DNA of 64,000 bases from IMG/VR virus record IMGVR_UViG_2703718774_000012; one strand, 5' to 3'. Origin of the DNA: a virus (taxonomy: Duplodnaviria; Heunggongvirae; Uroviricota; Caudoviricetes). Positions 40,154-59,948 of the stretch are shown here, one piece after another. Every line of letters begins with the position of its first letter. Position 1 is the stretch's first letter. Position numbers and translations under genes: made by a program. Under the pieces are notes generated by a model that saw only the letters and a list, made by a program, of their open reading frames with translations, was not told the origin of the DNA and searched no databases.

Positions 40154-40309
40154 TTACCTTTCAGATTCGTAGGCTGTGAAGACAGTGACCTCCGTCTGGC
40201 CGGTTCGGATTCGTACCTCGCAGAGGTCTTTCCTCGTTACCAGTGCCGTCACAATGACGGTTAAACAGATGACGATCAGAGCGATTAACATCGCTTTTTG
40301 CTGCTTCAT
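40154..40309 (-). CDS. hok: Hok/Gef-family type I toxin (51 aa)
   Basis: Translation MKQQKAMLIALIVICLTVIVTALVTRKDLCEVRIRTGQTEVTVFTAYESER nearly collinear with recalled Gef/Hok; not in ORF track (short). Confidence 0.8.
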   Translation of the reverse strand: MKQQKAMLIALIVICLTVIVTALVTRKDLCEVRIRTGQTEVTVFTAYESER

Positions 40310-42626: not shown

Positions 42627-43670
42627 TTAACCTATTGCTACTGGTTTTAACAAACCAGCATCAAGTAGCTTGCGAGTTAACCACTGCTGGCCTTTACCCG
42701 TTAATTGGGGCGTCAGCCGTATCTGGTAGCCATCTTCATCATCCAGCACCACTTCTTTCACCGTGAAATATCCGGCGTTGATGTACTGTTGGCGCGGTAC
42801 GTTTTTGCGCGCACCAAAAGCCATGAGAATGCCGTTCTGGCGCAACCATGAGAAAAGGGCGTTTTGCTTAAGTCCAACGACCTTTGCAAAGTTCCCGATC
42901 AGGATTCCATTAGCCGCTGATACCCGGTCGGCAAAATCGACTTTAGGGGCTGCGGCCACCAGCTGTTGTTCCAACTGCATTTTCTGTTCTGCCAACTCGG
43001 CAGCCAGGCGTAGAGCTTCTGGTAATGTTTGGGGGATCGATGGGGTAGGGGAGTTTGCCTGCTGCAATTCTTCCAGTTTGTCGATCAGCGAACGGCGGAC
43101 GGCTTTTGATTCGCGTGCGGCGACTCGCAGGGCTTGTTTGTAGGTCATGGTTATGACAACCATAGGCGTACCGCCACCTGGCGGCACGGTTGCACTTTTT
43201 GTGTAACCGTCCTCACCTTCTAATTCGTCGAGTATTTTTTCGATGAATTTGTTGTTCCGAACCTCTGGTTCCCCACATAACTTACGCGCTTCATTGACCA
43301 TCTTTAACAGTGTCTGGCTGTCGATTGTGTCTCCAGTGTTGGAGATAACATTCACAGCTGGTGATGGCGTAGCTGAAGCAACAGGTGCTGTTTTTTCAAC
43401 ATTCAAATTATTACCGGTCATTCTGCGCGCCTCCTTTCTCATTTCTGCTGCCACTGTTGCGTAACGTAGACGTCCTTGTTCAATCAAATAATCCCTGATC
43501 TCGGCTATCAGTAGCCTGTTGATCACAGCCTTATCTGTTCGGGTATAAAAACGTCTGGTTATCATGAAATAGTTGGCAATTGCGCCGGGGATCTCCCGTG
43601 TCGGCATACAGGTTGTATGCAAAGCGATCGCTTCGGCTATTTCATTACGGGTGACGAGAGGTTTTTTCAT
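42627..43670 (-). CDS. ant: antirepressor Ant (347 aa)
   Basis: C-terminal antirepressor domain shared with KilA; translationally coupled to icd (ATGA overlap); downstream of c4-like RNA. Confidence 0.6.
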   Translation of the reverse strand: MKKPLVTRNEIAEAIALHTTCMPTREIPGAIANYFMITRRFYTRTDKAVINRLLIAEIRDYLIEQGRLRYATVAAEMRKEARRMTGNNLNVEKTAPVASATPSPAVNVISNTGDTIDSQTLLKMVNEARKLCGEPEVRNNKFIEKILDELEGEDGYTKSATVPPGGGTPMVVITMTYKQALRVAARESKAVRRSLIDKLEELQQANSPTPSIPQTLPEALRLAAELAEQKMQLEQQLVAAAPKVDFADRVSAANGILIGNFAKVVGLKQNALFSWLRQNGILMAFGARKNVPRQQYINAGYFTVKEVVLDDEDGYQIRLTPQLTGKGQQWLTRKLLDAGLLKPVAIG

Positions 43671-43888
43671 AAAACCCCCTGAACGTCGGCAGAGAAGGGG
43701 AGGTTCCAGTAACTAAGTGAATTGCGCGAGTTAGTTGAAAAACGGGCAGTGAAAATGCAGGGGCCATCAGGCAATTGAGAGCGTGCTTCGTCTTCTGTTG
43801 CTGCGATAACGAAGTGATAGTGGTGTTTTTTACAGGAATAGAAACGCCAGATGAATTCTTGGCGTGCGCAAGGATTGGCATTAACCAT
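43667..43888 (-). CDS. icd: Icd-like small protein overlapping ant start
   Basis: 73-aa ORF whose RBS/start region carries the c4 target repeats. Confidence 0.5.
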   Translation of the reverse strand: MVNANPCARQEFIWRFYSCKKHHYHFVIAATEDEARSQLPDGPCIFTARFSTNSRNSLSYWNLPFSADVQGVL

Positions 43889-43938
43889 AGTTACGGCCTC
43901 ACAATCAGGTTTAACAACCTGCTACCCGCTGTCAAACA

Positions 43939-44016
43939 GGTGGCAGGACGTGACAGGGTTGACAGACTGGCGATTGTGAAACCAGCAGGCCGAAGCCTCC
44001 CCATCACGCCCCACCA
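43939..44016 (-). ncRNA. c4: c4-like antisense repressor RNA of immI (~78 nt)
   Basis: Minus strand GGTGGGGCG...CACAATC...CTGTCAAC...CCTGCCACC: loops complementary to TTGACAG and GATTGTG repeats found upstream (~44085-44105) and at the icd RBS (~43895-43935); closing stem GGTGG/CCACC. Confidence 0.5.
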
Positions 44017-44202
44017 TAATTTGGGCGTAACGCGGTTTAACGGACACAAAAATACCGCAATATCGGAAATCTGCGGTTGTCCGCACAATCATTCAGGCTG
44101 TCAAACCTGGTCGCAGAATTTGCTACGACGGCGGAACTATAAGCCTGAACGATTAAAAGGTCAATATGATGCGAAAAGATAGCATTCGCGACTTAAAAAT
44201 AC

Positions 44203-44219
44203 AAATTTATTAGAGCATT
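44203..44219 (-). promoter_or_regulatory. C1-type operator (AATGCTCTAATAAATTT) with TTGACC-N17-TATAGT promoter for c4-icd-ant
   Basis: 16/17 consensus match; strong sigma70-like promoter immediately downstream on minus strand. Confidence 0.5.
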
Positions 44220-44315
44220 GCTTGTTTAATAAATGCACAATTGGATCTAATAACCTCTTTTTTTTAAAGGCGAAAATATGTACCCTAAATGAGTTATAAG
44301 GCAGGTGAGGTTATA

Positions 44316-44807
44316 ATGAGAAAACTATTACTACCGTTATTATTTATGGCTGGGACTGTTAATGCAGCATCAAGCGTGAAGGAGATTTGTACCGATTATA
44401 CGAAATACCTTGGGCACGTTTACGGCTTTGCTGTCAGTCAAGACGAATCCATGCGCAAGAAGTTACTGTCAGATATGAAACGTCTTAAACTTTCTGAAGC
44501 GATGGTGCAGCAAGAACTATATAAAGTCGCAACCAACGAAAATGCTAAATATCAATATTCTCGCCTATTAAATCCCGACGCAAACGAGATCAATCGAAGC
44601 ACTTTCGATTATATGGTAAAGGCATGCGAAACCGCTCCTGATTTTGCTATCCCTAGCTGGGGTGTGCTGGTGGCGAGCAATGCCGTTAATAAAGAAGATG
44701 TTGGAAGAAATGGCATTGACTCAATAAGAAATGCCCCAGGAATGCGCCATCAAAACGTACAGGGTACGCTTGAAGAACGAGCCAGGGGGCCGGGTGTAGC
44801 CCCATAA
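44316..44807 (+). CDS. secreted protein of unknown function (signal peptide)
   Basis: Start MRKLLLPLLFMAGTVNAAS with GGTGAGG RBS; AT-rich gene; C-terminus carries PGMR..VQGTLEERARG motif also present in the tape-measure protein. Confidence 0.45.
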   Translation: MRKLLLPLLFMAGTVNAASSVKEICTDYTKYLGHVYGFAVSQDESMRKKLLSDMKRLKLSEAMVQQELYKVATNENAKYQYSRLLNPDANEINRSTFDYMVKACETAPDFAIPSWGVLVASNAVNKEDVGRNGIDSIRNAPGMRHQNVQGTLEERARGPGVAP

Positions 44808-44895
44808 TTTAATAAATAATATTAAATTCTCTGGGCATAGTGGATCTAACAATATGGACTATGCCTATAATATCTAAAAACAAAAGGATAAAAAT

Positions 44896-45402
44896 ATGAA
44901 ATTGTATAAGTCATTGTATAGCTTTTTATTAATGTTCTCTTTTCTGCCATTATCAGCAATGGCAGGTTCTACCGTTTGGACGGTAGGAGGTGAGCAAGGG
45001 TGGAGAGAAATCTCTGCAACCAATGACGATGGTTACACAATTAACTTTTCCTGTGATGCTGGAGCAAGGGAAGGTTCAGAAGATCATATCGCTGGAAGAA
45101 ATTTGTATGTAAGCGGAGGAAAAGAGAATGCCGATTTTTCTACACGCGACACAATATCACGTAAAGCAGATGTAATTACTTTAATTGTTGGCCCGGATAG
45201 TTTTAATATTGGCACGCAAAACACTGCTCCTAATCGTAGGGAATGGTATTCATTTTGGAAGGCAGTGTCATCTACAAATGAAAAAAAAATAGATGTATAT
45301 ATCGGTTCGAGTCGAATCACATCATTCACTCTGGATGGTATTTCCAGTATTTATACAGAAGCTAAAAATGACGGGTGTTTAAAACAAGATGACGGTGAAT
45401 AA
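44896..45402 (+). CDS. secreted protein of unknown function (signal peptide)
   Basis: MKLYKSLYSFLLMFSFLPLSAMAGS; contains A9 homopolymer in coding sequence. Confidence 0.5.
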   Translation: MKLYKSLYSFLLMFSFLPLSAMAGSTVWTVGGEQGWREISATNDDGYTINFSCDAGAREGSEDHIAGRNLYVSGGKENADFSTRDTISRKADVITLIVGPDSFNIGTQNTAPNRREWYSFWKAVSSTNEKKIDVYIGSSRITSFTLDGISSIYTEAKNDGCLKQDDGE

Positions 45403-46573
45403 AGTGAAGGATATTAAAAAACTTGCACTTGGCTCAGTAAGCGATCTCTATAATAGAGATTCAAATATTACCTGGCGTGATAATTTAAGTAAAATCAAAA
45501 TGCCAGGATATACATCGGCAAGTGATTTATTAAAATCAGAATATGCTTCTAATAATTTGGTTAGACAGTTGGCAGAACTGCAAAAAAACGCAATCATTCC
45601 ATCGTATAGAGAACATATGGCAAACTTGCAAGAACAGTTAAGAATAGGGCGGCTAGCTCAAGAACAAATAGCAAGATTGAATTTGCAATCGTTACTTAGT
45701 GATTCTGTTAAAAAACAGCTTGCGAACATGACGAGCTTGAGAAGAATAAATAGCAAGCATCGTGAATTTCTTGAAATTCTACAGAAACAGGCCAAGGTTT
45801 ATCCCCCGCATGATGCAAATAAATACATTCAAATGCTAAGGAAGCAGGCAGAAATTGCTATGCCGTTACGAAACCAGTTCGAGATGCTTAATAAGCAAGC
45901 TGGTTTAAATAACATGCAAGCAATACTTAATGAATTGCGACAAAATGTAAGTCATAAGATAGATTTAAACAATGAAATAAAAGAATCATTAAAACAATAT
46001 ACCCTAGCGCAAAAGGCTTCATTACATCAAATAATGGAGCAAAGTCTTTCATCAATTGCACAGGCTTATGTCGAAGGTGCTATTGAAACATCTCACAACG
46101 AAAGTGATGTTCAAGACAAAGGATTAAATAAATCCAGTCCGACGTTCATTGATTCATTTAAGTCGCTCCCTCACCCGCTTCAGTTTATTATTATGTGGCT
46201 TTTAACAGAAGTGGTGCTTGGCGCTATTGCTGATTATGCAAAAGAACAAATCTTATCGCAAATACACAAGACAGAATCATATTCTGTATCCCTATATGAG
46301 GATGCACCAATATCAAAACAAAAATTAATTAAAGAAAACACAGAAATTAAGTGGGAAGATCTCAATGGTTTTAGGTTTATAACTGGTGATAACGTAAGAT
46401 TACATGTCAGTCCTTCTTTAAATAGTGAAGTGATTGAATGCATTGGCAAAAACACAATTGTTGCTATTTTAGATAAGAAAGATCGTCAATGGCTTTACGT
46501 GCAGGTTAAATCAGGGGATGAGTTTATTACTGGTTGGATTACACGAACATACACAAAGCCTCTTAAGGCTTGA
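45389..46573 (+). CDS. membrane-anchored protein with coiled-coil region and C-terminal SH3-like domain
   Basis: Internal TM LQFIIMWLLTEVVLGAIADY; C-terminus ...VRLHVSPSLNSEVIECIGKNTIVAILDKKDRQWLYVQV..GWI resembles bacterial SH3. Confidence 0.45.
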   Translation: MTVNKVKDIKKLALGSVSDLYNRDSNITWRDNLSKIKMPGYTSASDLLKSEYASNNLVRQLAELQKNAIIPSYREHMANLQEQLRIGRLAQEQIARLNLQSLLSDSVKKQLANMTSLRRINSKHREFLEILQKQAKVYPPHDANKYIQMLRKQAEIAMPLRNQFEMLNKQAGLNNMQAILNELRQNVSHKIDLNNEIKESLKQYTLAQKASLHQIMEQSLSSIAQAYVEGAIETSHNESDVQDKGLNKSSPTFIDSFKSLPHPLQFIIMWLLTEVVLGAIADYAKEQILSQIHKTESYSVSLYEDAPISKQKLIKENTEIKWEDLNGFRFITGDNVRLHVSPSLNSEVIECIGKNTIVAILDKKDRQWLYVQVKSGDEFITGWITRTYTKPLKA

Positions 46574-46703
46574 ATTTTATCTCCGCATCTTCGGATTGGG
46601 TGTTGATGACGATGTGCTACTTGAAGCACTTGAGTTGTTTTAACGTAGTATCTGAAATGTGTAGACTGACCGGTAACAAATGACAACTCGTAGAATCGGT
46701 TAA

Positions 46704-47294
<591 letters not shown>

Positions 47295-48893: not shown

Positions 48894-51800
48894 ATGGAAA
48901 GAAAAAACGCCAATATTGACGATGTTATAAGGACAGTTGAAACCGCCAGCGCGAAAGAGCTGGAAGAGCTTGCAGGTATTCGGGAAGCTGTTGAAGATTT
49001 GAAAGGGGAACGAGTTGCAACTGTTGATCCTGTCTCTCGCAGTGTGTCGGCATTAAATCGCACAATCGAAAATTCCCGGCCAGACTTTGTGGCCAATGCG
49101 CCATCAGTAGACCCTATTGTTGACGCAATGAAACGGCTTAATTTAGGGGACGTTTCTCGTGTAGTTCAGGAGGATGTTGATCTACAGGAACCGCAGGCCA
49201 AATCAACTACGCGAAAGGGTAAAAAACGACGCAAGAAGGCTATAACAGAAGATGTAAAGGCGCAACGGACCGAAGCAGCCGAACACGCTCGCGAAATGTT
49301 CGGTCAAAAAGGCGGTGCGCAAAAAAGCCAAAACCAACGCGATGCGCGTGGTCGTTTTATTGGAAAGTCAGGGAGTAAGGCCGCAGCGGAAGATGCCCGT
49401 GCTGAACGTGCTGAAAAGGCCTGGCGCAAAGAGGATGATGAGCGTCTAAATGCTGAATCAGGTTTATTAAAAAAACTGTCAAAAGTAGCTGAAGGCATAG
49501 GTAACCCTTCAGAGACTCGTGCCGTCGATGCGTTAGGTTATGCCGTTGCTGGTCCATTGTGGGCAGCAGGGAAGGAGCTTGGCGGGATATCAAAAGAAGT
49601 TGGTGGATCGCTTAATGGTGCCAGAAAGTCTATTGCCGATGTGATTCGTGGCAATGACGATAACAGCCGTAGAAAAGGTTTTTTTAGGCGTAAATCGCAA
49701 AATAGTGCCGATGTCGTTCAGGTTAACACCCAAAAACGGACGGTTCAGGAACTTCAGGAGCAGACCAGCGAAATTAAAGAGGGCAATGACAAGATTCTCC
49801 GTGCCCTTGATCAGATAGCCAAAAACACCGGTAAAAAGAAGGGCGGCTTGCTGTCCAAACTATTTAGCCTGTTAGGGAAGGGGGCCGGTGGCGTCGCGTC
49901 GTTGTTAATGGGGCGTGGCATGCTGAAAAAAGCTGGAGCACTCGCTTTTGGCGCTCTGGGGGCAAAGAAACTTGTAGGAATGCTACGCGGTGGTGGCAAG
50001 AAGACTCTCGCTCATGAAGGCGGAGATTTGGCTGCCCGGGCAGCAGGTAAACTTGGATTAAAGGCAGTTGGTAAAGGGGCGTTACGCGCAATTCCCCTAG
50101 TCGGCACAGTGGCTGGAGGTATTTATGGTGCGGTAACCGGTTGGAATGATACAGAAGCGCAACGTCGAGCGTTTGGGCTTAAATCAGGACAAGATCCATC
50201 ATTCCAGCAAAAAGCCGCTTATACGTTAGCTAATGTTCTTGATATGGGGGGACTGGTATCTGGTATTAGCAGCGCCATTGGTGAGGTTCTCAAATCACTT
50301 GGATTTGAGGATATCGGCAATATGTTGCAATCATTTTCGACGGAAAGTATTGCCCTGGCCATTGATAGTGGGATTACCAACTTAGAAACATATATTTCTA
50401 ACCTTGGCGACACCATTTCTACCAAGTTCGATGATTACACAGCAAAGATTGGTGATGCTGTTTCAGCATGGTTTAGCGATACATCTAATAAGCTGCTTGA
50501 AAAGCTGGATGCCATCAAAGACTTCTTTACTGTCGATAACCTGAAACAGGTTTTCAGTGATGCAATTGATAGTGCAATTGATTTCATTAAGAACCCAGGG
50601 AAACACATTAAAGAGGCGGCTGGTAATATTTGGGATGGGGTTAAAAATTTACCAGGTAAAGCATTAGATGCAGCGGTTGATGCCGTTAAAAATACCCCTG
50701 CGGCAATGATTGTATCAAAAATACCCAATCCGATCGGCGAGGCTAATGCGAAAGAAATCACTCCAGAGTCAAAAGTTCCGGTTAATAGCCACCAGGGGAC
50801 ATCTGATTCTAAAACTGAATCCGATGCCAAACAGACTAATATTGCTGCCCGCGTGATATATGCGGCCCTGGATATGGCGAAAGATAGCAATAAAACAGTT
50901 AAAGAAACTGCTAATCAGATTATCAATGCAAATGCCGTAGAAACAGGAAATAAAGCAGCACAAACAATTGATGCTGCCTTGGGCCAGTCTGCTACAGGTA
51001 AGGAGGAAGCATTAAGTGCATATGAGATAGATAAACGTCGATTTAACAATGGCAAGGATGTTTCTTTGCCAAAATTAAATGCTGCCGGATACCAATGGAT
51101 TTCTGACAATGCCGATTATTTTGATGAGCTTGAACGTAAGTATGGGCTTGAAAAAGGGATTCTGTCAGCAGTTGCATCCGCAGAGTCTAGTGCAGGCCAG
51201 AGAACTGGAAATCCAGTAGACAAAAACGGGAACAAACTTTCATCTGCCCTTGGGGCTTTTCAGATCACTAAAGGTACAAGGGAGGATCTTGGACTCAGCG
51301 ATGCTGATGCCATGGATACACGAAAAGCAGCTGATGGTGCCGCCAGATACCTAAGTATGCTGATGAACCGTTATAACGGTGACCAGGGTCGTGCAATAGC
51401 TGCCTATCATGCTGGTATGGGGCATGTTGATAAGGGGAGAGTAGTCGCAGGTACCGGCGAATATGTTACTCGTGTCAGAGGGTATCAGCAGATGCTCAAT
51501 AATGGTGCCGTTTATGGCTCTAAGGTAGATCATAGCGCACCAGCAATTTACGAAAAGATACCTGATAACGCCGTTATCGATCAGTCTACTGGCCTGGCGT
51601 TTACCCCTGGTGATAGCCCGTTTGAGAAAGGCGGTCTGGTCGACAAAATCGGCAATGCTGTTGGCGTTAACGATCTGGTCAACAAATTCATGAATGGCCG
51701 GGGGATGCGTCGGGAAGTCGTTCAGGGAACGCTAGAAGAACGTGCACGAGGGAAGGGGACCGCAACAGCAGCTGGCAATGTGTATGTTGATACTCCGATG

Positions 51801-52268
51801 CCAGTTGAAGAGGCGCGTCCGGTGGCCAACAACTCAAGTTACTTTGACCATCTCGGCGCACAAATGGGGATTGATGGACTATTCGATAAACTCCGCAACT
51901 CGCCGGGGATGCGGAAAAATAATGCGCCTGAACCAGCCTCCACGTCCCAGGTGACGACTGCCGCCAACGATTTGCAGCAACCAACCGGTCGTATGCAGAT
52001 AGACGGGCAGGTTATTAGTGACCTTGGCGGTTCCGGTGCCAAGCCGACAATGCAGTTGGCTGATAATACCGTTTCACTTGATGGTGAAACGAAGCGGCTG
52101 TTTGCGCAGATGACCTCATTGCTTGCCAGGATTGAAGAGCACACTAAAGACTCGGCGAAAGGCCAGGGAACTGTCGTAAAGGTCAGCACGCCTCAGCCGG
52201 GCGTTATGCGCACGGTACCACTGTCAATTGATGATCCGTTGATGAATGACTACGCGAGAGTTGATTGA
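48894..52268 (+). CDS. tape-measure / injection protein with lytic transglycosylase (SLT) domain (P1 Sit-like)
   Basis: 1124 aa; Gly/Lys-rich N-terminal third; SLT signature AVASAESSAGQ...GAFQITKGT...AAYHAGMGHV. Confidence 0.7.
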   Translation: MERKNANIDDVIRTVETASAKELEELAGIREAVEDLKGERVATVDPVSRSVSALNRTIENSRPDFVANAPSVDPIVDAMKRLNLGDVSRVVQEDVDLQEPQAKSTTRKGKKRRKKAITEDVKAQRTEAAEHAREMFGQKGGAQKSQNQRDARGRFIGKSGSKAAAEDARAERAEKAWRKEDDERLNAESGLLKKLSKVAEGIGNPSETRAVDALGYAVAGPLWAAGKELGGISKEVGGSLNGARKSIADVIRGNDDNSRRKGFFRRKSQNSADVVQVNTQKRTVQELQEQTSEIKEGNDKILRALDQIAKNTGKKKGGLLSKLFSLLGKGAGGVASLLMGRGMLKKAGALAFGALGAKKLVGMLRGGGKKTLAHEGGDLAARAAGKLGLKAVGKGALRAIPLVGTVAGGIYGAVTGWNDTEAQRRAFGLKSGQDPSFQQKAAYTLANVLDMGGLVSGISSAIGEVLKSLGFEDIGNMLQSFSTESIALAIDSGITNLETYISNLGDTISTKFDDYTAKIGDAVSAWFSDTSNKLLEKLDAIKDFFTVDNLKQVFSDAIDSAIDFIKNPGKHIKEAAGNIWDGVKNLPGKALDAAVDAVKNTPAAMIVSKIPNPIGEANAKEITPESKVPVNSHQGTSDSKTESDAKQTNIAARVIYAALDMAKDSNKTVKETANQIINANAVETGNKAAQTIDAALGQSATGKEEALSAYEIDKRRFNNGKDVSLPKLNAAGYQWISDNADYFDELERKYGLEKGILSAVASAESSAGQRTGNPVDKNGNKLSSALGAFQITKGTREDLGLSDADAMDTRKAADGAARYLSMLMNRYNGDQGRAIAAYHAGMGHVDKGRVVAGTGEYVTRVRGYQQMLNNGAVYGSKVDHSAPAIYEKIPDNAVIDQSTGLAFTPGDSPFEKGGLVDKIGNAVGVNDLVNKFMNGRGMRREVVQGTLEERARGKGTATAAGNVYVDTPMPVEEARPVANNSSYFDHLGAQMGIDGLFDKLRNSPGMRKNNAPEPASTSQVTTAANDLQQPTGRMQIDGQVISDLGGSGAKPTMQLADNTVSLDGETKRLFAQMTSLLARIEEHTKDSAKGQGTVVKVSTPQPGVMRTVPLSIDDPLMNDYARVD

Positions 52269-58264: not shown

Positions 58265-58842
58265 TGACATTCAGAATGAGTGAACAATCACGGACCATAA
58301 AAATTTATAATCTACTGGCTGGAACCAATGAGTTTATTGGTGAAGGTGATGCATACATTCCACCTCATACAGGTCTGCCTGCAAACAGTACCGATATTGC
58401 CCCGCCAGATATTCCGGCTGGCTTCGTGGCCGTTTTCAACAGTGATGAGGCATCGTGGAATCTCGTTGAAGACCATCGGGGAAAAACCGTCTATGACGTG
58501 GCTTCCGGCGACGCGTTATTTATTTCTGAACTTGGCCCATTACCGGAAAATGTCACCTGGTTATCCCCGGAAGGGGAGTTTCAGAAGTGGAACGGCACAG
58601 CCTGGGTGAAAGATGCAGAAGCAGAAAAACTGTTCCGGATCCGGAAGGCGGAAGAAACAAAAAACAGCCTGATGCAGATGGCCAGTGAGCATATTGCGCC
58701 ACTTCAGGATGCCGTAGATTTGGATATTGCGACGGAGGAAGAGGCATCGTTACTGACTGCATGGAAGACATATCGGGTATTGTTGAATCGTGTTGATACA
58801 ACAGTAGCATCGGATGTTGAGTGGCCAGTCGCCCCGCAATAA
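58264..58842 (+). CDS. tail fibre assembly chaperone (Tfa/U-like)
   Basis: 192 aa; start overlaps fibre stop (TAATG); pattern ...[15 protein letters not shown]...[19 protein letters not shown] typical of Tfa. Confidence 0.75.
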
Positions 58843-58885
58843 AAGGATAAAGCCATCGATAGAAATATTGATGGCTTCATGTACT

Positions 58886-59458
58886 CTATTTATACAATAC
58901 AACACCGCTCTTTTTTGTTATATATGTGCAGTTCGATGGTATATCTTTATTTATAAAAGACATTGCACCTATTTTTACATTATCCCCAATTTTACGTGAT
59001 AATCCAATGATGCAACAATTAGCTCCGATATCAACGTTATTACCAATTTTTACTCTTGAACCAGGCATGTCACCATCTACCTGTCCAATGGTAGTATTCT
59101 GTCGCAAAACCAGATTTTCACCAGCATCAACAGCAAAATGAACAACAATTCCAGTATGATGGGGAATTGTTAAACCTTTTCCAATATTTGCGCCCAATCC
59201 AATTTCGCAACCAAATCTGTTAATTATATTATTGTTTAACTTTCTGGCTGCTTTCTTATGTAATTTATTGCCATTAATATACATTTCATTAGCCAGTCTC
59301 CACCAGAAAAGGAAATTCCGATTGCGCTGCTTCTTCTCTCTTAATAGTCGCCAAACATCCATTTTTTCACGCCTGATGATTTCAGCCATCCAATAGCTCA
59401 ATAGAGCTTTTGAATTCCCGAAGATGACAAAGTGAATAGCTATTAAGTAACATAACAT
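58886..59458 (-). CDS. hexapeptide-repeat (left-handed beta-helix) acetyltransferase
   Basis: Repeats GLGANIGKG, IVVHFAVDAGENLVLRQNTTIG, VKIGNNVDIGANCCIIG; AT-rich gene convergent with tail fibre operon. Confidence 0.65.
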   Translation of the reverse strand: MLCYLIAIHFVIFGNSKALLSYWMAEIIRREKMDVWRLLREKKQRNRNFLFWWRLANEMYINGNKLHKKAARKLNNNIINRFGCEIGLGANIGKGLTIPHHTGIVVHFAVDAGENLVLRQNTTIGQVDGDMPGSRVKIGNNVDIGANCCIIGLSRKIGDNVKIGAMSFINKDIPSNCTYITKKSGVVLYK

Positions 59459-59948
59459 ATTGCAACTGCCTATATTTTTTGGTTTCTATGGTTATATATT
59501 GACATTATAATTAAAACAATAATCATCAGTGTGTTACTGCGTTCCTGCTAAACTAAATCAACGCACAATGTAAACACAAATGTTAATTTTAAACTGAGCG
59601 CTAAAGGGATGTCAATATTGTATTGATAATGAGTTGCAAGATTGCCAACACTTTCTATATTTTTGGATGTAATAATTTATATTTTATCTATTTAGTGTTT
59701 CTTTAGACTTATTAAGGATGTCATTATTAATTTATGGCTTGCCATTTCTATACATATCTGTTAAAAATTTTGACTTGTTTGTTGAAAATAGATTTAATTG
59801 ATTGGTTTATTTTTTACATGACGCTCTTTAATATAGCTTCAGGTATATATAAGCACAATGCATTATTTCCAGAGGAAATTAACAAAATTGTTAGCTCTTA
59901 TTTGTTGAGCTTATAGATATTAATTAAGGCCCGATTCCGGGCCTTTCC

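Follow-up and report, generated by a model that had tools for sequence, protein, structure and literature searches.

In phage P1, the interval between the immunity region and the tail genes carries simA-simB-simC, which are annotated as superimmunity genes, are not needed for plaque formation, and include signal-peptide proteins among their products. This simABC region is one of eight highly variable regions with low guanine–cytosine (GC) content across 77 P1-like phage-plasmids compared (PMC9603915). Exclusion proteins acting on tape-measure proteins have been described in other phages, namely Ltp of TP-J34 and gp15 of HK97 (PMC10883804), and T4 Imm binds the tape-measure protein of T4 (bioRxiv 10.64898/2026.03.06.709160). 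Here, we analyzed the sim locus in a 64,000-nucleotide (nt) stretch, hereafter the window, of a Caudoviricetes record (IMG/VR IMGVR_UViG_2703718774_000012). The window is a P1-like phage-plasmid, and positions 44289–46573 are its simABC variable region, located between c4/immI and LPsit-pmgC and occupied by three open reading frames (ORF1–ORF3). On solid evidence, the three encode envelope-directed proteins and form an accessory unit in the sim hot spot that is maintained by selection. Moreover, the C-terminal tail of ORF1 is similar to part of Sit, the tape-measure protein, and we tentatively propose that the unit acts in superinfection exclusion at the envelope.

Three envelope-directed proteins at the sim locus

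The region and its flanks are 96–97% identical to P1-family phages, including P1 itself on both sides of simABC. The plasmid pF1273-3 of Escherichia coli O157:H7 is 100% identical here, as are plasmids of O111:H8, O103:H2, and other strains. The three ORFs lie between c4/Op51 and LPsit-pmgC and diverge from immI (c4-icd-ant), which is the location of the P1 sim genes; the right-hand neighbors are pmgC, tub, pmgB, and the tape-measure gene sit. The position beside the immunity region and before the tail operon, which had been pointed out in an original prediction made from the sequence alone, is exactly where P1 has simA-simB-simC. In P7, the same interval encodes a lipoprotein and a signal-peptide protein. 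Because the P1, P7, and window cassettes all encode exported proteins, the sim locus consistently houses proteins of this kind.

All three ORFs are consecutive, on the plus strand, and intact, as had been predicted, with the starts of ORF1 and ORF3 amended. ORF1 most likely begins at ATG 44316 and not at 44289, because a GGTGAGG Shine–Dalgarno sequence lies upstream and this start was called in an identical plasmid by the Prokaryotic Genome Annotation Pipeline (PGAP). The start annotated by PGAP for ORF3 is GTG 45404, one base past the ORF2 stop; the alternative ATG 45389 would give 394 amino acids (aa) and a 14-nt overlap with ORF2. Given this one-base gap or 14-nt overlap, ORF2 and ORF3 would be co-transcribed, and their translation is probably coupled. 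The predicted export signals and SH3-like C-terminus are real, and there are indeed two signal-peptide proteins: ORF1 and ORF2 have textbook Sec signals as read from the sequence. The NAAS motif at the ORF1 cleavage site is invariant across the SimA-domain family alignment. Mature ORF1 and mature ORF2 contain two family-conserved cysteines each, and the ORF1 pair is invariant.

ORF1 matched phrog_3933 (E = 2e-114, profile positions 1–162 of 213) and has all invariant columns of the SimA domain (ICTDYxxYLGH ... LSEAMV ... PDxxIPSW, plus NxxGMR). An identical protein is called 'simA domain protein' in several database records. ORF1 is 94% identical over 50 aa to P1 SimA, which is 52 aa in full, and 98% identical to the first 161 aa of gp35 (215 aa) of phage Ro157c2YLVW. 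The C-terminal region of full-length family members (~213–246 aa) is not present in ORF1, whose stop codon lies 12 nt past a homology junction at 44795. ORF1 is thus a conserved-backbone gene whose 3' end was lost, and P1 simA is a shorter stump of the same family. An AlphaFold2 model from 14 sequences is all-helical, with predicted local distance difference test (pLDDT) values of 91–97 for the block spanning approximately residues 31–130; the tail after the helical domain has values of 46–62, that is, it is disordered. An assignment of ORF1 to the PTP-like phytases (PF14566) was rejected: the score of 26.8 bits falls short of the cutoff (27), the C-x5-R loop is missing (ETAPDF comes after the conserved Cys, without Arg at +6), and the model is all-helical.

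ORF2 shows the family-conserved residues W28, G35, C53, W117, and C161 and belongs to the YfjT/YkfB family (PF27224); the protein would be periplasmic and beta-rich. PF27224 is precomputed on proteins 93–99% identical to ORF2, PGAP labels a 98.8% identical protein 'YfjT/YkfB family phage-associated protein', and the family hidden Markov model finds E. coli K-12 YfjT (E = 2.4e-28); an NCBIfam scan returned no match for ORF2 itself. Relatives are few: HMMER, run exhaustively against 1.84 billion representative proteins, found only 17. A Foldseek search of BFVD gave one probable family member, labeled 'putative adhesin', and a match to the giant protein P0093, a PKD-repeat protein, was discarded as spurious. 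The literature searched contained no reported function for YfjT or YkfB and no functional study of SimA-domain proteins, the YfjT family, or the SH3 protein encoded by ORF3.

ORF3 matched phrog_7086 (E = 4.5e-200) and has 47 homologs, nearly all on Enterobacteriaceae contigs of ~90–100 kb. Its N-terminal 255 residues form a Q/K-rich coiled coil with repeat expansions and are hypervariable (identity 13–84% in the family, down to 13–23%), whereas the C-terminal part, made up of helix, linker, and SH3 domain, is conserved (62–99% identity in SH3). The SH3_3 domain (PF08239) scored 26.0 bits against a cutoff of 27 in ORF3 (E = 1.1e-5, model positions 1–52 of 54) and was matched by 19 of 19 aligned family members at E ≤ 0.01 (best 2.3e-9); we regard this profile-based assignment as sound at the family level. 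SH3b domains typically bind peptidoglycan, and the amidase of phrog_1794 has the same SH3 domain as ORF3. ORF3 has no signal peptide. Its one hydrophobic segment (residues 263–285), directly preceded by an LP that is invariant in the family, makes the predicted membrane anchoring plausible but not proven, since the Kyte-Doolittle mean over 19 residues is 1.83 and there is an internal Glu. ORF3 is probably an inner-membrane protein with a cytoplasmic N-terminus and a periplasmic SH3 domain of the peptidoglycan-binding type. A comparison of the ORF3-family profile with the PDB yielded coiled-coil noise only, including Vipp1 at E ~0.5.

Selection was evaluated as the ratio of non-synonymous to synonymous substitution rates (dN/dS) in five copies, namely the window and four plasmids, one of them from E. 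albertii. Each of these copies, which have diverged by up to ~0.3 substitutions per synonymous site, has the three ORFs intact. Synonymous differences far outnumber non-synonymous ones in ORF1 (e.g., 14 versus 1–3) and likewise in ORF2, giving dN/dS values of 0.02–0.07 for ORF1 and ~0.1 for ORF2, which indicates purifying selection. Because ORF1 is intact in all copies and its dN/dS is low, the truncated gene is kept by selection and is no dead stump. In ORF3, dN/dS was at most 0.26 for the SH3 domain and, in an in-register comparison, 0.8–1.1 for N-terminal segments. A value above 1 for codons 61–130 against plasmid L020 was an artifact of compensating indels in an ungapped comparison.

The Sit-like tail of ORF1

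The original prediction held that none of the three proteins resembles a structural or replication protein. This was not quite right, as the tail of ORF1 is similar to a stretch of Sit, the tape-measure protein. In blastp, ORF1 residues 131–171 (NAPGMRHQNVQGTLEERARGPG) aligned with residues 921–957 of the window Sit (NGRGMRREVVQGTLEERARGKG) at 51% identity over 41 aa. The PHROG Sit profile (phrog_2533) matched ORF1 at profile positions 928–963 with E = 3e-5, and it matched full-length gp35 with E = 1e-7. The Smith-Waterman score was 90, compared with 37.5 ± 5.3 for shuffled sequences (z ~10), and 0 of 2000 shuffles reached 90. Among the window ORFs, Sit is the sole other match of the ORF1 tail. 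Furthermore, a 61-aa tail segment of gp35, which is 98% identical to ORF1 in the shared part, was compared by tblastn with 50,697 phage genomes (2.3 Gb). It matched the gp35 gene itself and P1-like sit genes, the sole exception being a hypothetical protein of one Cronobacter phage.

The shared motif reads F-x-N-x-x-G-M-R-x-x-x-V-Q-G-T-L-x-E-R-A-x-G-x-G, and N-x-x-G-M-R is invariant or nearly invariant across the SimA-domain family. The motif is kept in all seven Sit proteins compared, including Sits that are just 44–52% identical overall; mean pairwise identity among the seven is 0.73 in the motif versus 0.55 over the whole protein. In the shared QGTLEERA codons, the nucleotide differences between ORF1 and sit are synonymous, which argues that the likeness is kept at the protein level and is not a fresh duplication. 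Sit, the tape-measure protein of P1, contains an SLT domain at residues ~750–900 (PMC9024508). The motif lies just C-terminal to this SLT (lytic-transglycosylase) domain, and a second, shorter GMR motif is found at approximately Sit aa 1005. Judging from the ORF1 model, a disordered tail behind a confident helical domain would suit a displayed linear motif.

In Sit itself, aa ~961–1000 (nt ~51774–51893), right behind GMR...QGTLEERA, are hypervariable and indel-rich, with mean pairwise identity of 0.04–0.16 among the seven Sits. The second GMR in that stretch is present in E. coli P1-type Sits and not in those of Salmonella and Klebsiella. This hypervariable stretch could be an arms-race site with exclusion proteins.

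Table 1. Features of the sim locus and its surroundings; positions refer to the window unless a related locus is named.
Feature	Position	Strand	Description
ORF1	44316–44807	+	Periplasmic protein with a SimA domain, truncated at the C-terminus; 163 aa (172 aa from 44289)
ORF1 Sec signal peptide MRKLLLPLLFMAGTVNA	44316–44366	+	Read from sequence; cleaved after VNA, MRKLLLPLLFMAGTVNA-ASS boundary (VNA/A)
ORF1 globular domain	44370–44693	+	Predicted all-helical; two conserved Cys
ORF1 flexible tail with Sit-like motif NAPGMRHQNVQGTLEERARGPG	44679–44801	+	blastp, PHROG, Smith-Waterman, tblastn
sit segment resembled by ORF1 tail	51651–51764	+	Sit aa 920–957
ORF2	44896–45402	+	YfjT/YkfB-family periplasmic protein, 168 aa
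ORF2 signal peptide MKLYKSLYSFLLMFSFLPLSAMA	44896–44964	+	Read from sequence; MKLYKSLYSFLLMFSFLPLSAMA-GST boundary (AMA/G)
ORF3	45404–46573	+	389 aa; repeat-rich coiled-coil N-terminus, hydrophobic helix, C-terminal SH3b
ORF3 predicted transmembrane helix PLQFIIMWLLTEVVLGAIADYAK	46175–46243	+	Top 19-residue Kyte-Doolittle mean
ORF3 bacterial SH3 domain (SH3_3)	46388–46552	+	Pfam PF08239
Low-GC replacement cassette	44796–46666	+	GC 0.358; 1.87 kb; carries ORF2 and ORF3
C1 repressor operator AAATTTATTAGAGCAtT	44204–44220		Read from sequence; P1 Op51/Oc4 equivalent
Predicted sigma-70 promoter, PsimA equivalent	44222–44253	+	Position transferred from P1 annotation
Hairpin, 20-nt arms	44822–44877		ORF1–ORF2 spacer; loop holds TGGATCTAACAA; TATAAT in 3' arm
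Terminator-like hairpin AAGCCTCTTAAGGCTT, then GAATTTTATC	46556–46571	+	Overlaps ORF3 stop
ant	42627–43670	-	Left neighbor
icd	43667–43888	-	Left neighbor
C4 antisense RNA of immI	43936–44021	-	Rfam RF01695, 68.4 bits, E = 1.7e-12
a1b1 target of C4 RNA	44090–44142		Rfam-based
116–117-aa membrane protein genes in related loci	L004 2019–2369; L008 10768–11121; L014 7077–7427		

Mosaic build, distribution, and transcription signals

The GC content of 44289–46573 is 0.373 against a window mean of 0.472, the lowest for a stretch of that length; just 0.3% of same-length sliding windows are equally low, and the window minimum begins at 44151. GC at third codon positions is 0.28–0.29 in ORF2 and ORF3 versus 0.41–0.53 in pmgC, tub, pmgB, and sit. 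Both profiles bear out the predicted drop below the flanks, and GC is not uniform. The description of the genes as AT-rich fits ORF2 and ORF3 but fits ORF1 only mildly (GC 0.437). A second low-GC patch, at ~58500–59750 (GC 0.33–0.39), is a moron-like insertion. It contains a 190-aa ORF (58886–59458, minus strand) that is hexapeptide-repeat acetyltransferase-like by sequence only, directly follows the tail-fiber and tail-fiber-assembly genes, and could modify O-antigen or the surface. The third such patch is at ~751–1750, with GC of 0.385 over 1 kb.

The original prediction of a single three-gene cargo island gave way to a mosaic. The left homology breakpoints are at 44217 for P7, 44455 for P1 (the end of simA), and 44795 for Ro157c2YLVW. 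On the right, homology to all three picks up again at ~46667–46675 (46667 for Ro157c2YLVW, 46675 for P1). The replacement cassette between these points removed the 3' end of the SimA-domain gene and introduced ORF2 and ORF3. The locus was assembled by nested recombination, and the unit consists of three independent envelope-targeted modules, with ORF1 as a truncated backbone gene and ORF3 as a gene mobile on its own; ORF3 relatives are also solitary in unrelated plasmid contexts in Citrobacter and Yersinia. The cassette boundaries have no convincing direct or inverted repeats that would indicate site-specific insertion, and no tandem repeats.

Across related phage-plasmids, a comparison that the original prediction had called for, the cassette proved variable, with several types at the locus. 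Approximately 509 PLSDB plasmids have pmgC-tub; 168 of them carry the P7-type cassette, ~137–141 carry simB-simC, and at least 35 carry the three-gene arrangement described here (≥80% of length). In RefSeq, 283 complete E. coli genomes gave any match, and 32 of these have this cassette. Identical islands were found mainly in O157:H7, O111:H8, O103:H2, O145, and O55:H7 strains from cattle and humans. Another combination at the locus consists of a full-length SimA-domain gene, a 116-aa multi-pass membrane protein, a third YfjT-type allele, and the SH3 gene; a further one is the same set minus the SimA-domain gene, and in yet another, the same ORF1 and ORF2 are joined by an ORF3 that is just ~60% identical in its N-terminus.

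At divergent SimA-domain loci (Salmonella, Klebsiella aerogenes, and other assemblies), Sit is just 44–52% identical to that of the window. The order there is icd/ant leftward, the SimA-domain gene, an optional 117-aa membrane protein, the PF27224 gene, and pmgC-tub-pmgB-sit. Because the same order recurs in divergent Escherichia, Salmonella, and Klebsiella elements, the SimA-domain/YfjT pair is an old, positionally fixed feature of the P1/D6-like group and ancestral to the locus, with P1 and P7 as exceptions. YfjT-type alleles are 29–37% identical inside backbones that are otherwise 96% identical; ORF2 and gp34, its positional counterpart in Ro157c2YLVW, share 29%. Divergent alleles in a conserved backbone are typical of antagonistic co-evolution. 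Separately, a glycine-rich multi-pass membrane protein of 116–117 aa is encoded directly upstream of the YfjT gene in other cassettes, which suggests a recurring module of a small membrane protein and YfjT that echoes ypjK-yfjS-yfjT of the K-12 prophage CP4-57.

The putative C1 operator at this locus corresponds to the annotated P1 Oc4 (P1 record L001, 2103–2119), in a flank that is 96–97% identical to P1. The predicted PsimA equivalent begins 1–2 bp from this operator, with a -35 element at ~44222 and a -10 element (ATCTAA) at ~44245–44250 with TGG ahead. In the P1 annotation, PsimA is likewise only predicted, 5 bp from operator Oc4, and the same sequences are present in the window; a simple consensus promoter scan of the window did not list it. 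The sequence TGGATCTAACAA in the loop of the spacer hairpin is a near-copy of the PsimA -10 region. The 12-mer TGGATCTAA(T/C)AA, which includes a Dam GATC site, occurs at 44242–44253 (PsimA -10) and at 44841–44852 (hairpin loop), and this repeat could mark an additional promoter or a regulatory element of ORF2-ORF3, or could be chance. The terminator-like hairpin at the end of ORF3 would close the unit upstream of the late promoter LPsit.

Two further observations concern the surroundings. In the conserved LPsit/pmgC leader, just before the pmgC start, positions 46681–46727 hold a 17-nt inverted repeat with 88% complementarity and a spacer of 13 nt. At 40154–40309 on the minus strand, just beyond repL in the rlfA/rlfB variable region, there is a 51-aa Hok/Gef-type toxin ORF, MKQQKAMLIALIVICLTVIVTALVTRKDLCEVRIRTGQTEVTVFTAYESER; in a related plasmid, this site is occupied by a HOK_GEF gene (PF01848; L015, 2845–3000).

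Function and comparison with known systems

The reading that we tentatively favor is envelope-level superinfection exclusion at genome delivery, directed at injection by Sit, with ORF1 acting via its Sit-like tail. It is favored because of the P1 gene function at this site, the exported cassettes, the specificity of the mimicry, the allele diversity, and the tape-measure precedents. Such exclusion would be akin to that of P1 Sim at the same locus, but via unrelated proteins. In the periplasm, the ORF1 tail might be a decoy that competes with incoming Sit for a host or phage partner of the motif; alternatively, it might be a handle that docks ORF1 onto Sit beside the transglycosylase domain. 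ORF2 and ORF3 would contribute additional envelope-level blocks. It is more doubtful that SimA-domain proteins form a new exclusion class by molecular mimicry, in which a periplasmic copy of the Sit motif titrates a partner or docks onto Sit, P1 simA is a fossil, and the YfjT and SH3 proteins are companions. The titrated partner would then be what incoming P1-family virions need to open the inner membrane.

Several results weigh against exclusion. NCBIfam, PADLOC, and hhalign gave no homology to any characterized exclusion or defense protein: in PADLOC-DB v2, ORF1 and ORF2 had no match and ORF3 had only Csx1 (E = 0.086), with no passing domain, and weak Pfam and other matches (MIC19, Caudo_TAP, BMP2K_C, NapA, Csx1) were noise. 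The remote-homology and structure check that had been proposed gave no informative fold match for the three proteins, including none to the solved inhibitors T4 Spackle, Ivy, and PliC/MliC. ORF1-type tails do not vary with the Sit allele of the same element; a matrix of identities between SimA-domain tails and resident Sits in seven elements has no dominant diagonal, so a self-matched mimic was not supported and allele-specific co-evolution was not seen. The motif is above average in conservation, yet other Sit segments score higher, so it is not the most conserved part of Sit. ORF1 ends right behind the motif, and ~50 residues of its full-length relatives are gone. Moreover, the K-12 prophages CP4-57 and CP4-6 have YfjT genes without a SimA-domain gene or a P1-type tail, and ORF3 relatives occur alone elsewhere, so the three genes need not share one function. 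Finally, the predicted promoter abuts the C1 operator, which makes expression in a stable lysogen uncertain. The exclusion or defense module of the original prediction therefore stands in part: the locus and the Sit motif fit exclusion, but there is no SimB/SimC homology and no PADLOC match. Its other suggestions, receptor masking and anti-defense, found no specific support.

We consider it unlikely that the three genes instead encode lysogenic-conversion proteins of the envelope, which would alter host physiology (stress, adhesion, colonization, serum resistance) in the manner of the lambda bor/lom morons. The presence of the ORF2 family in K-12 cryptic prophages beside an inner-membrane lipoprotein and a small membrane protein is consistent with conversion, as are the serotypes that carry identical islands and the terminator and low GC that typical morons share. 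However, the serotype link may be sampling bias, and the fold matches are below any reliable threshold. Conversion also leaves unexplained both the specific copy of the Sit motif in ORF1 and the fixed position of the SimA-domain/YfjT pair beside the tail/sit operon in distant P1/D6-like lineages.

Somewhat less likely still is anti-phage defense against unrelated phages, centered on ORF3, in which the coiled coil would be a sensor, the helix and SH3 domain an abortive-infection membrane effector, and ORF1 and ORF2 bystanders. A conserved C-terminal helix and SH3 domain behind a hypervariable, repeat-expanding N-terminus, with the contrast in dN/dS between them, would fit such a protein, but the apparently high dN/dS is due in part to compensating indels in the comparison with L020, and nothing links the N-terminus to sensing. 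ORF3 relatives travel as solitary genes among phage-plasmids and plasmids, like defense genes, and variable regions in P1-like elements are known cargo sites. Against this, there is no PADLOC match and no enzymatic or known effector domain, and the sole helix is moderately hydrophobic, with a Glu.

A role in the lytic cycle seems equally improbable. The proteins would be expressed only once C1 repression is lifted, and would guard the infected cell against lysis-from-without by the Sit transglycosylase of adsorbing progeny (cf. T4 Spackle), tune lysis, or prevent injection into debris. The predicted promoter lies so close to the C1 operator that C1 may repress it in lysogens, yet promoter and control are only predicted. 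The SLT domain just upstream of the copied motif in Sit, the typical binding of SH3b domains to peptidoglycan, and the SH3 domain shared with the phrog_1794 amidase point in the same direction. The P1 Sim phenotype was first seen with multicopy clones, not with single-copy lysogens. On the other hand, P1 and P7 lack all three genes and grow normally, so any such role is dispensable. That the genes are decaying remnants, in which ORF1, like P1 simA, would be a dead stump and the genes of the cassette functionless hitchhikers, is highly improbable: ORF1 is cut at a recombination junction, P1 simA is even shorter, and the locus is a recombination hot spot, but dN/dS values of 0.02–0.19 largely refute decay, as do the intact ORFs in every diverged copy and the spread of the island through at least 35 PLSDB plasmids and 32 complete E. 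coli genomes.

E. coli commonly carries P1-like phage-plasmids, with ~5% of the complete genomes searched matching, and such elements spread resistance genes. How a resident element controls which other P1-like element can enter is poorly understood, apart from C1 immunity and Sim, which has barely been studied. If the ORF1 tail competes with or binds the tape measure, it would offer an entry point into P1 DNA delivery across the periplasm and would account for the odd 52-aa simA of the reference phage. It would also provide a first function for the neighborhood of YfjT/YkfB, still a y-gene family in K-12. If the proteins are host-conversion factors instead, their enrichment in Shiga-toxin-producing serotypes deserves attention.

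The P1 sim operon shares with the unit the locus and orientation, the upstream region, and the first 50 codons (those in which ORF1 matches SimA), as well as signal-peptide products, dispensable genes, and a low-GC variable region; P1 SimC is a processed periplasmic superimmunity (superinfection-exclusion) protein. In contrast, ORF1, ORF2, and ORF3 have no detectable homology to SimB or SimC beyond signal peptides. SimC (264-aa precursor, phrog_14355) and SimB (phrog_14329) gave no blastp match to the three proteins at E ≤ 1, and their PHROG families differ; when alignments of the YfjT family and of SimA-domain proteins were compared with SimC and SimB by hhalign, the probability was ~1%, from signal peptides only. 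The gp35/gp34 pair of Ro157c2YLVW and the Salmonella and Klebsiella pairs have a SimA-domain gene followed by a YfjT-family gene at the same locus and in the same order. However, gp35 is full length, the YfjT partner is divergent, there is no SH3 gene, and all are annotated as hypothetical. K-12 YfjT and YkfB resemble ORF2 in the signal peptide, the size of ~150 aa, and the W-G-C-W-C pattern, but they are only ~26% identical, and their genes are located in P4-like islands, behind ypjK and yfjS (a lipoprotein gene), rather than beside a tail operon.

With Ltp, gp15, and Imm, the proposed likeness is envelope-located, prophage- or phage-encoded interference with tape-measure-mediated DNA delivery. 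No homology to them turned up in Pfam, PHROG, and PADLOC scans, and they are a lipoprotein or inner-membrane proteins thought to bind the tape measure, whereas ORF1 would be a soluble periplasmic protein that copies its motif. T4 Spackle, which inhibits the tail lysozyme gp5, is like ORF1 a small, helical, periplasmic protein with a signal peptide and disulfide-type cysteines, and it too comes from a myophage with a muralytic injection apparatus. The hot spot and its low GC are already known, and the genes had been annotated as hypothetical, 'simA domain', 'YfjT/YkfB family', and 'SH3 domain-containing'. What is new in comparison is that P1 simA is read as a remnant, that the SimA-domain/YfjT pair shows deep synteny, and that mimicry of the tape measure is proposed.

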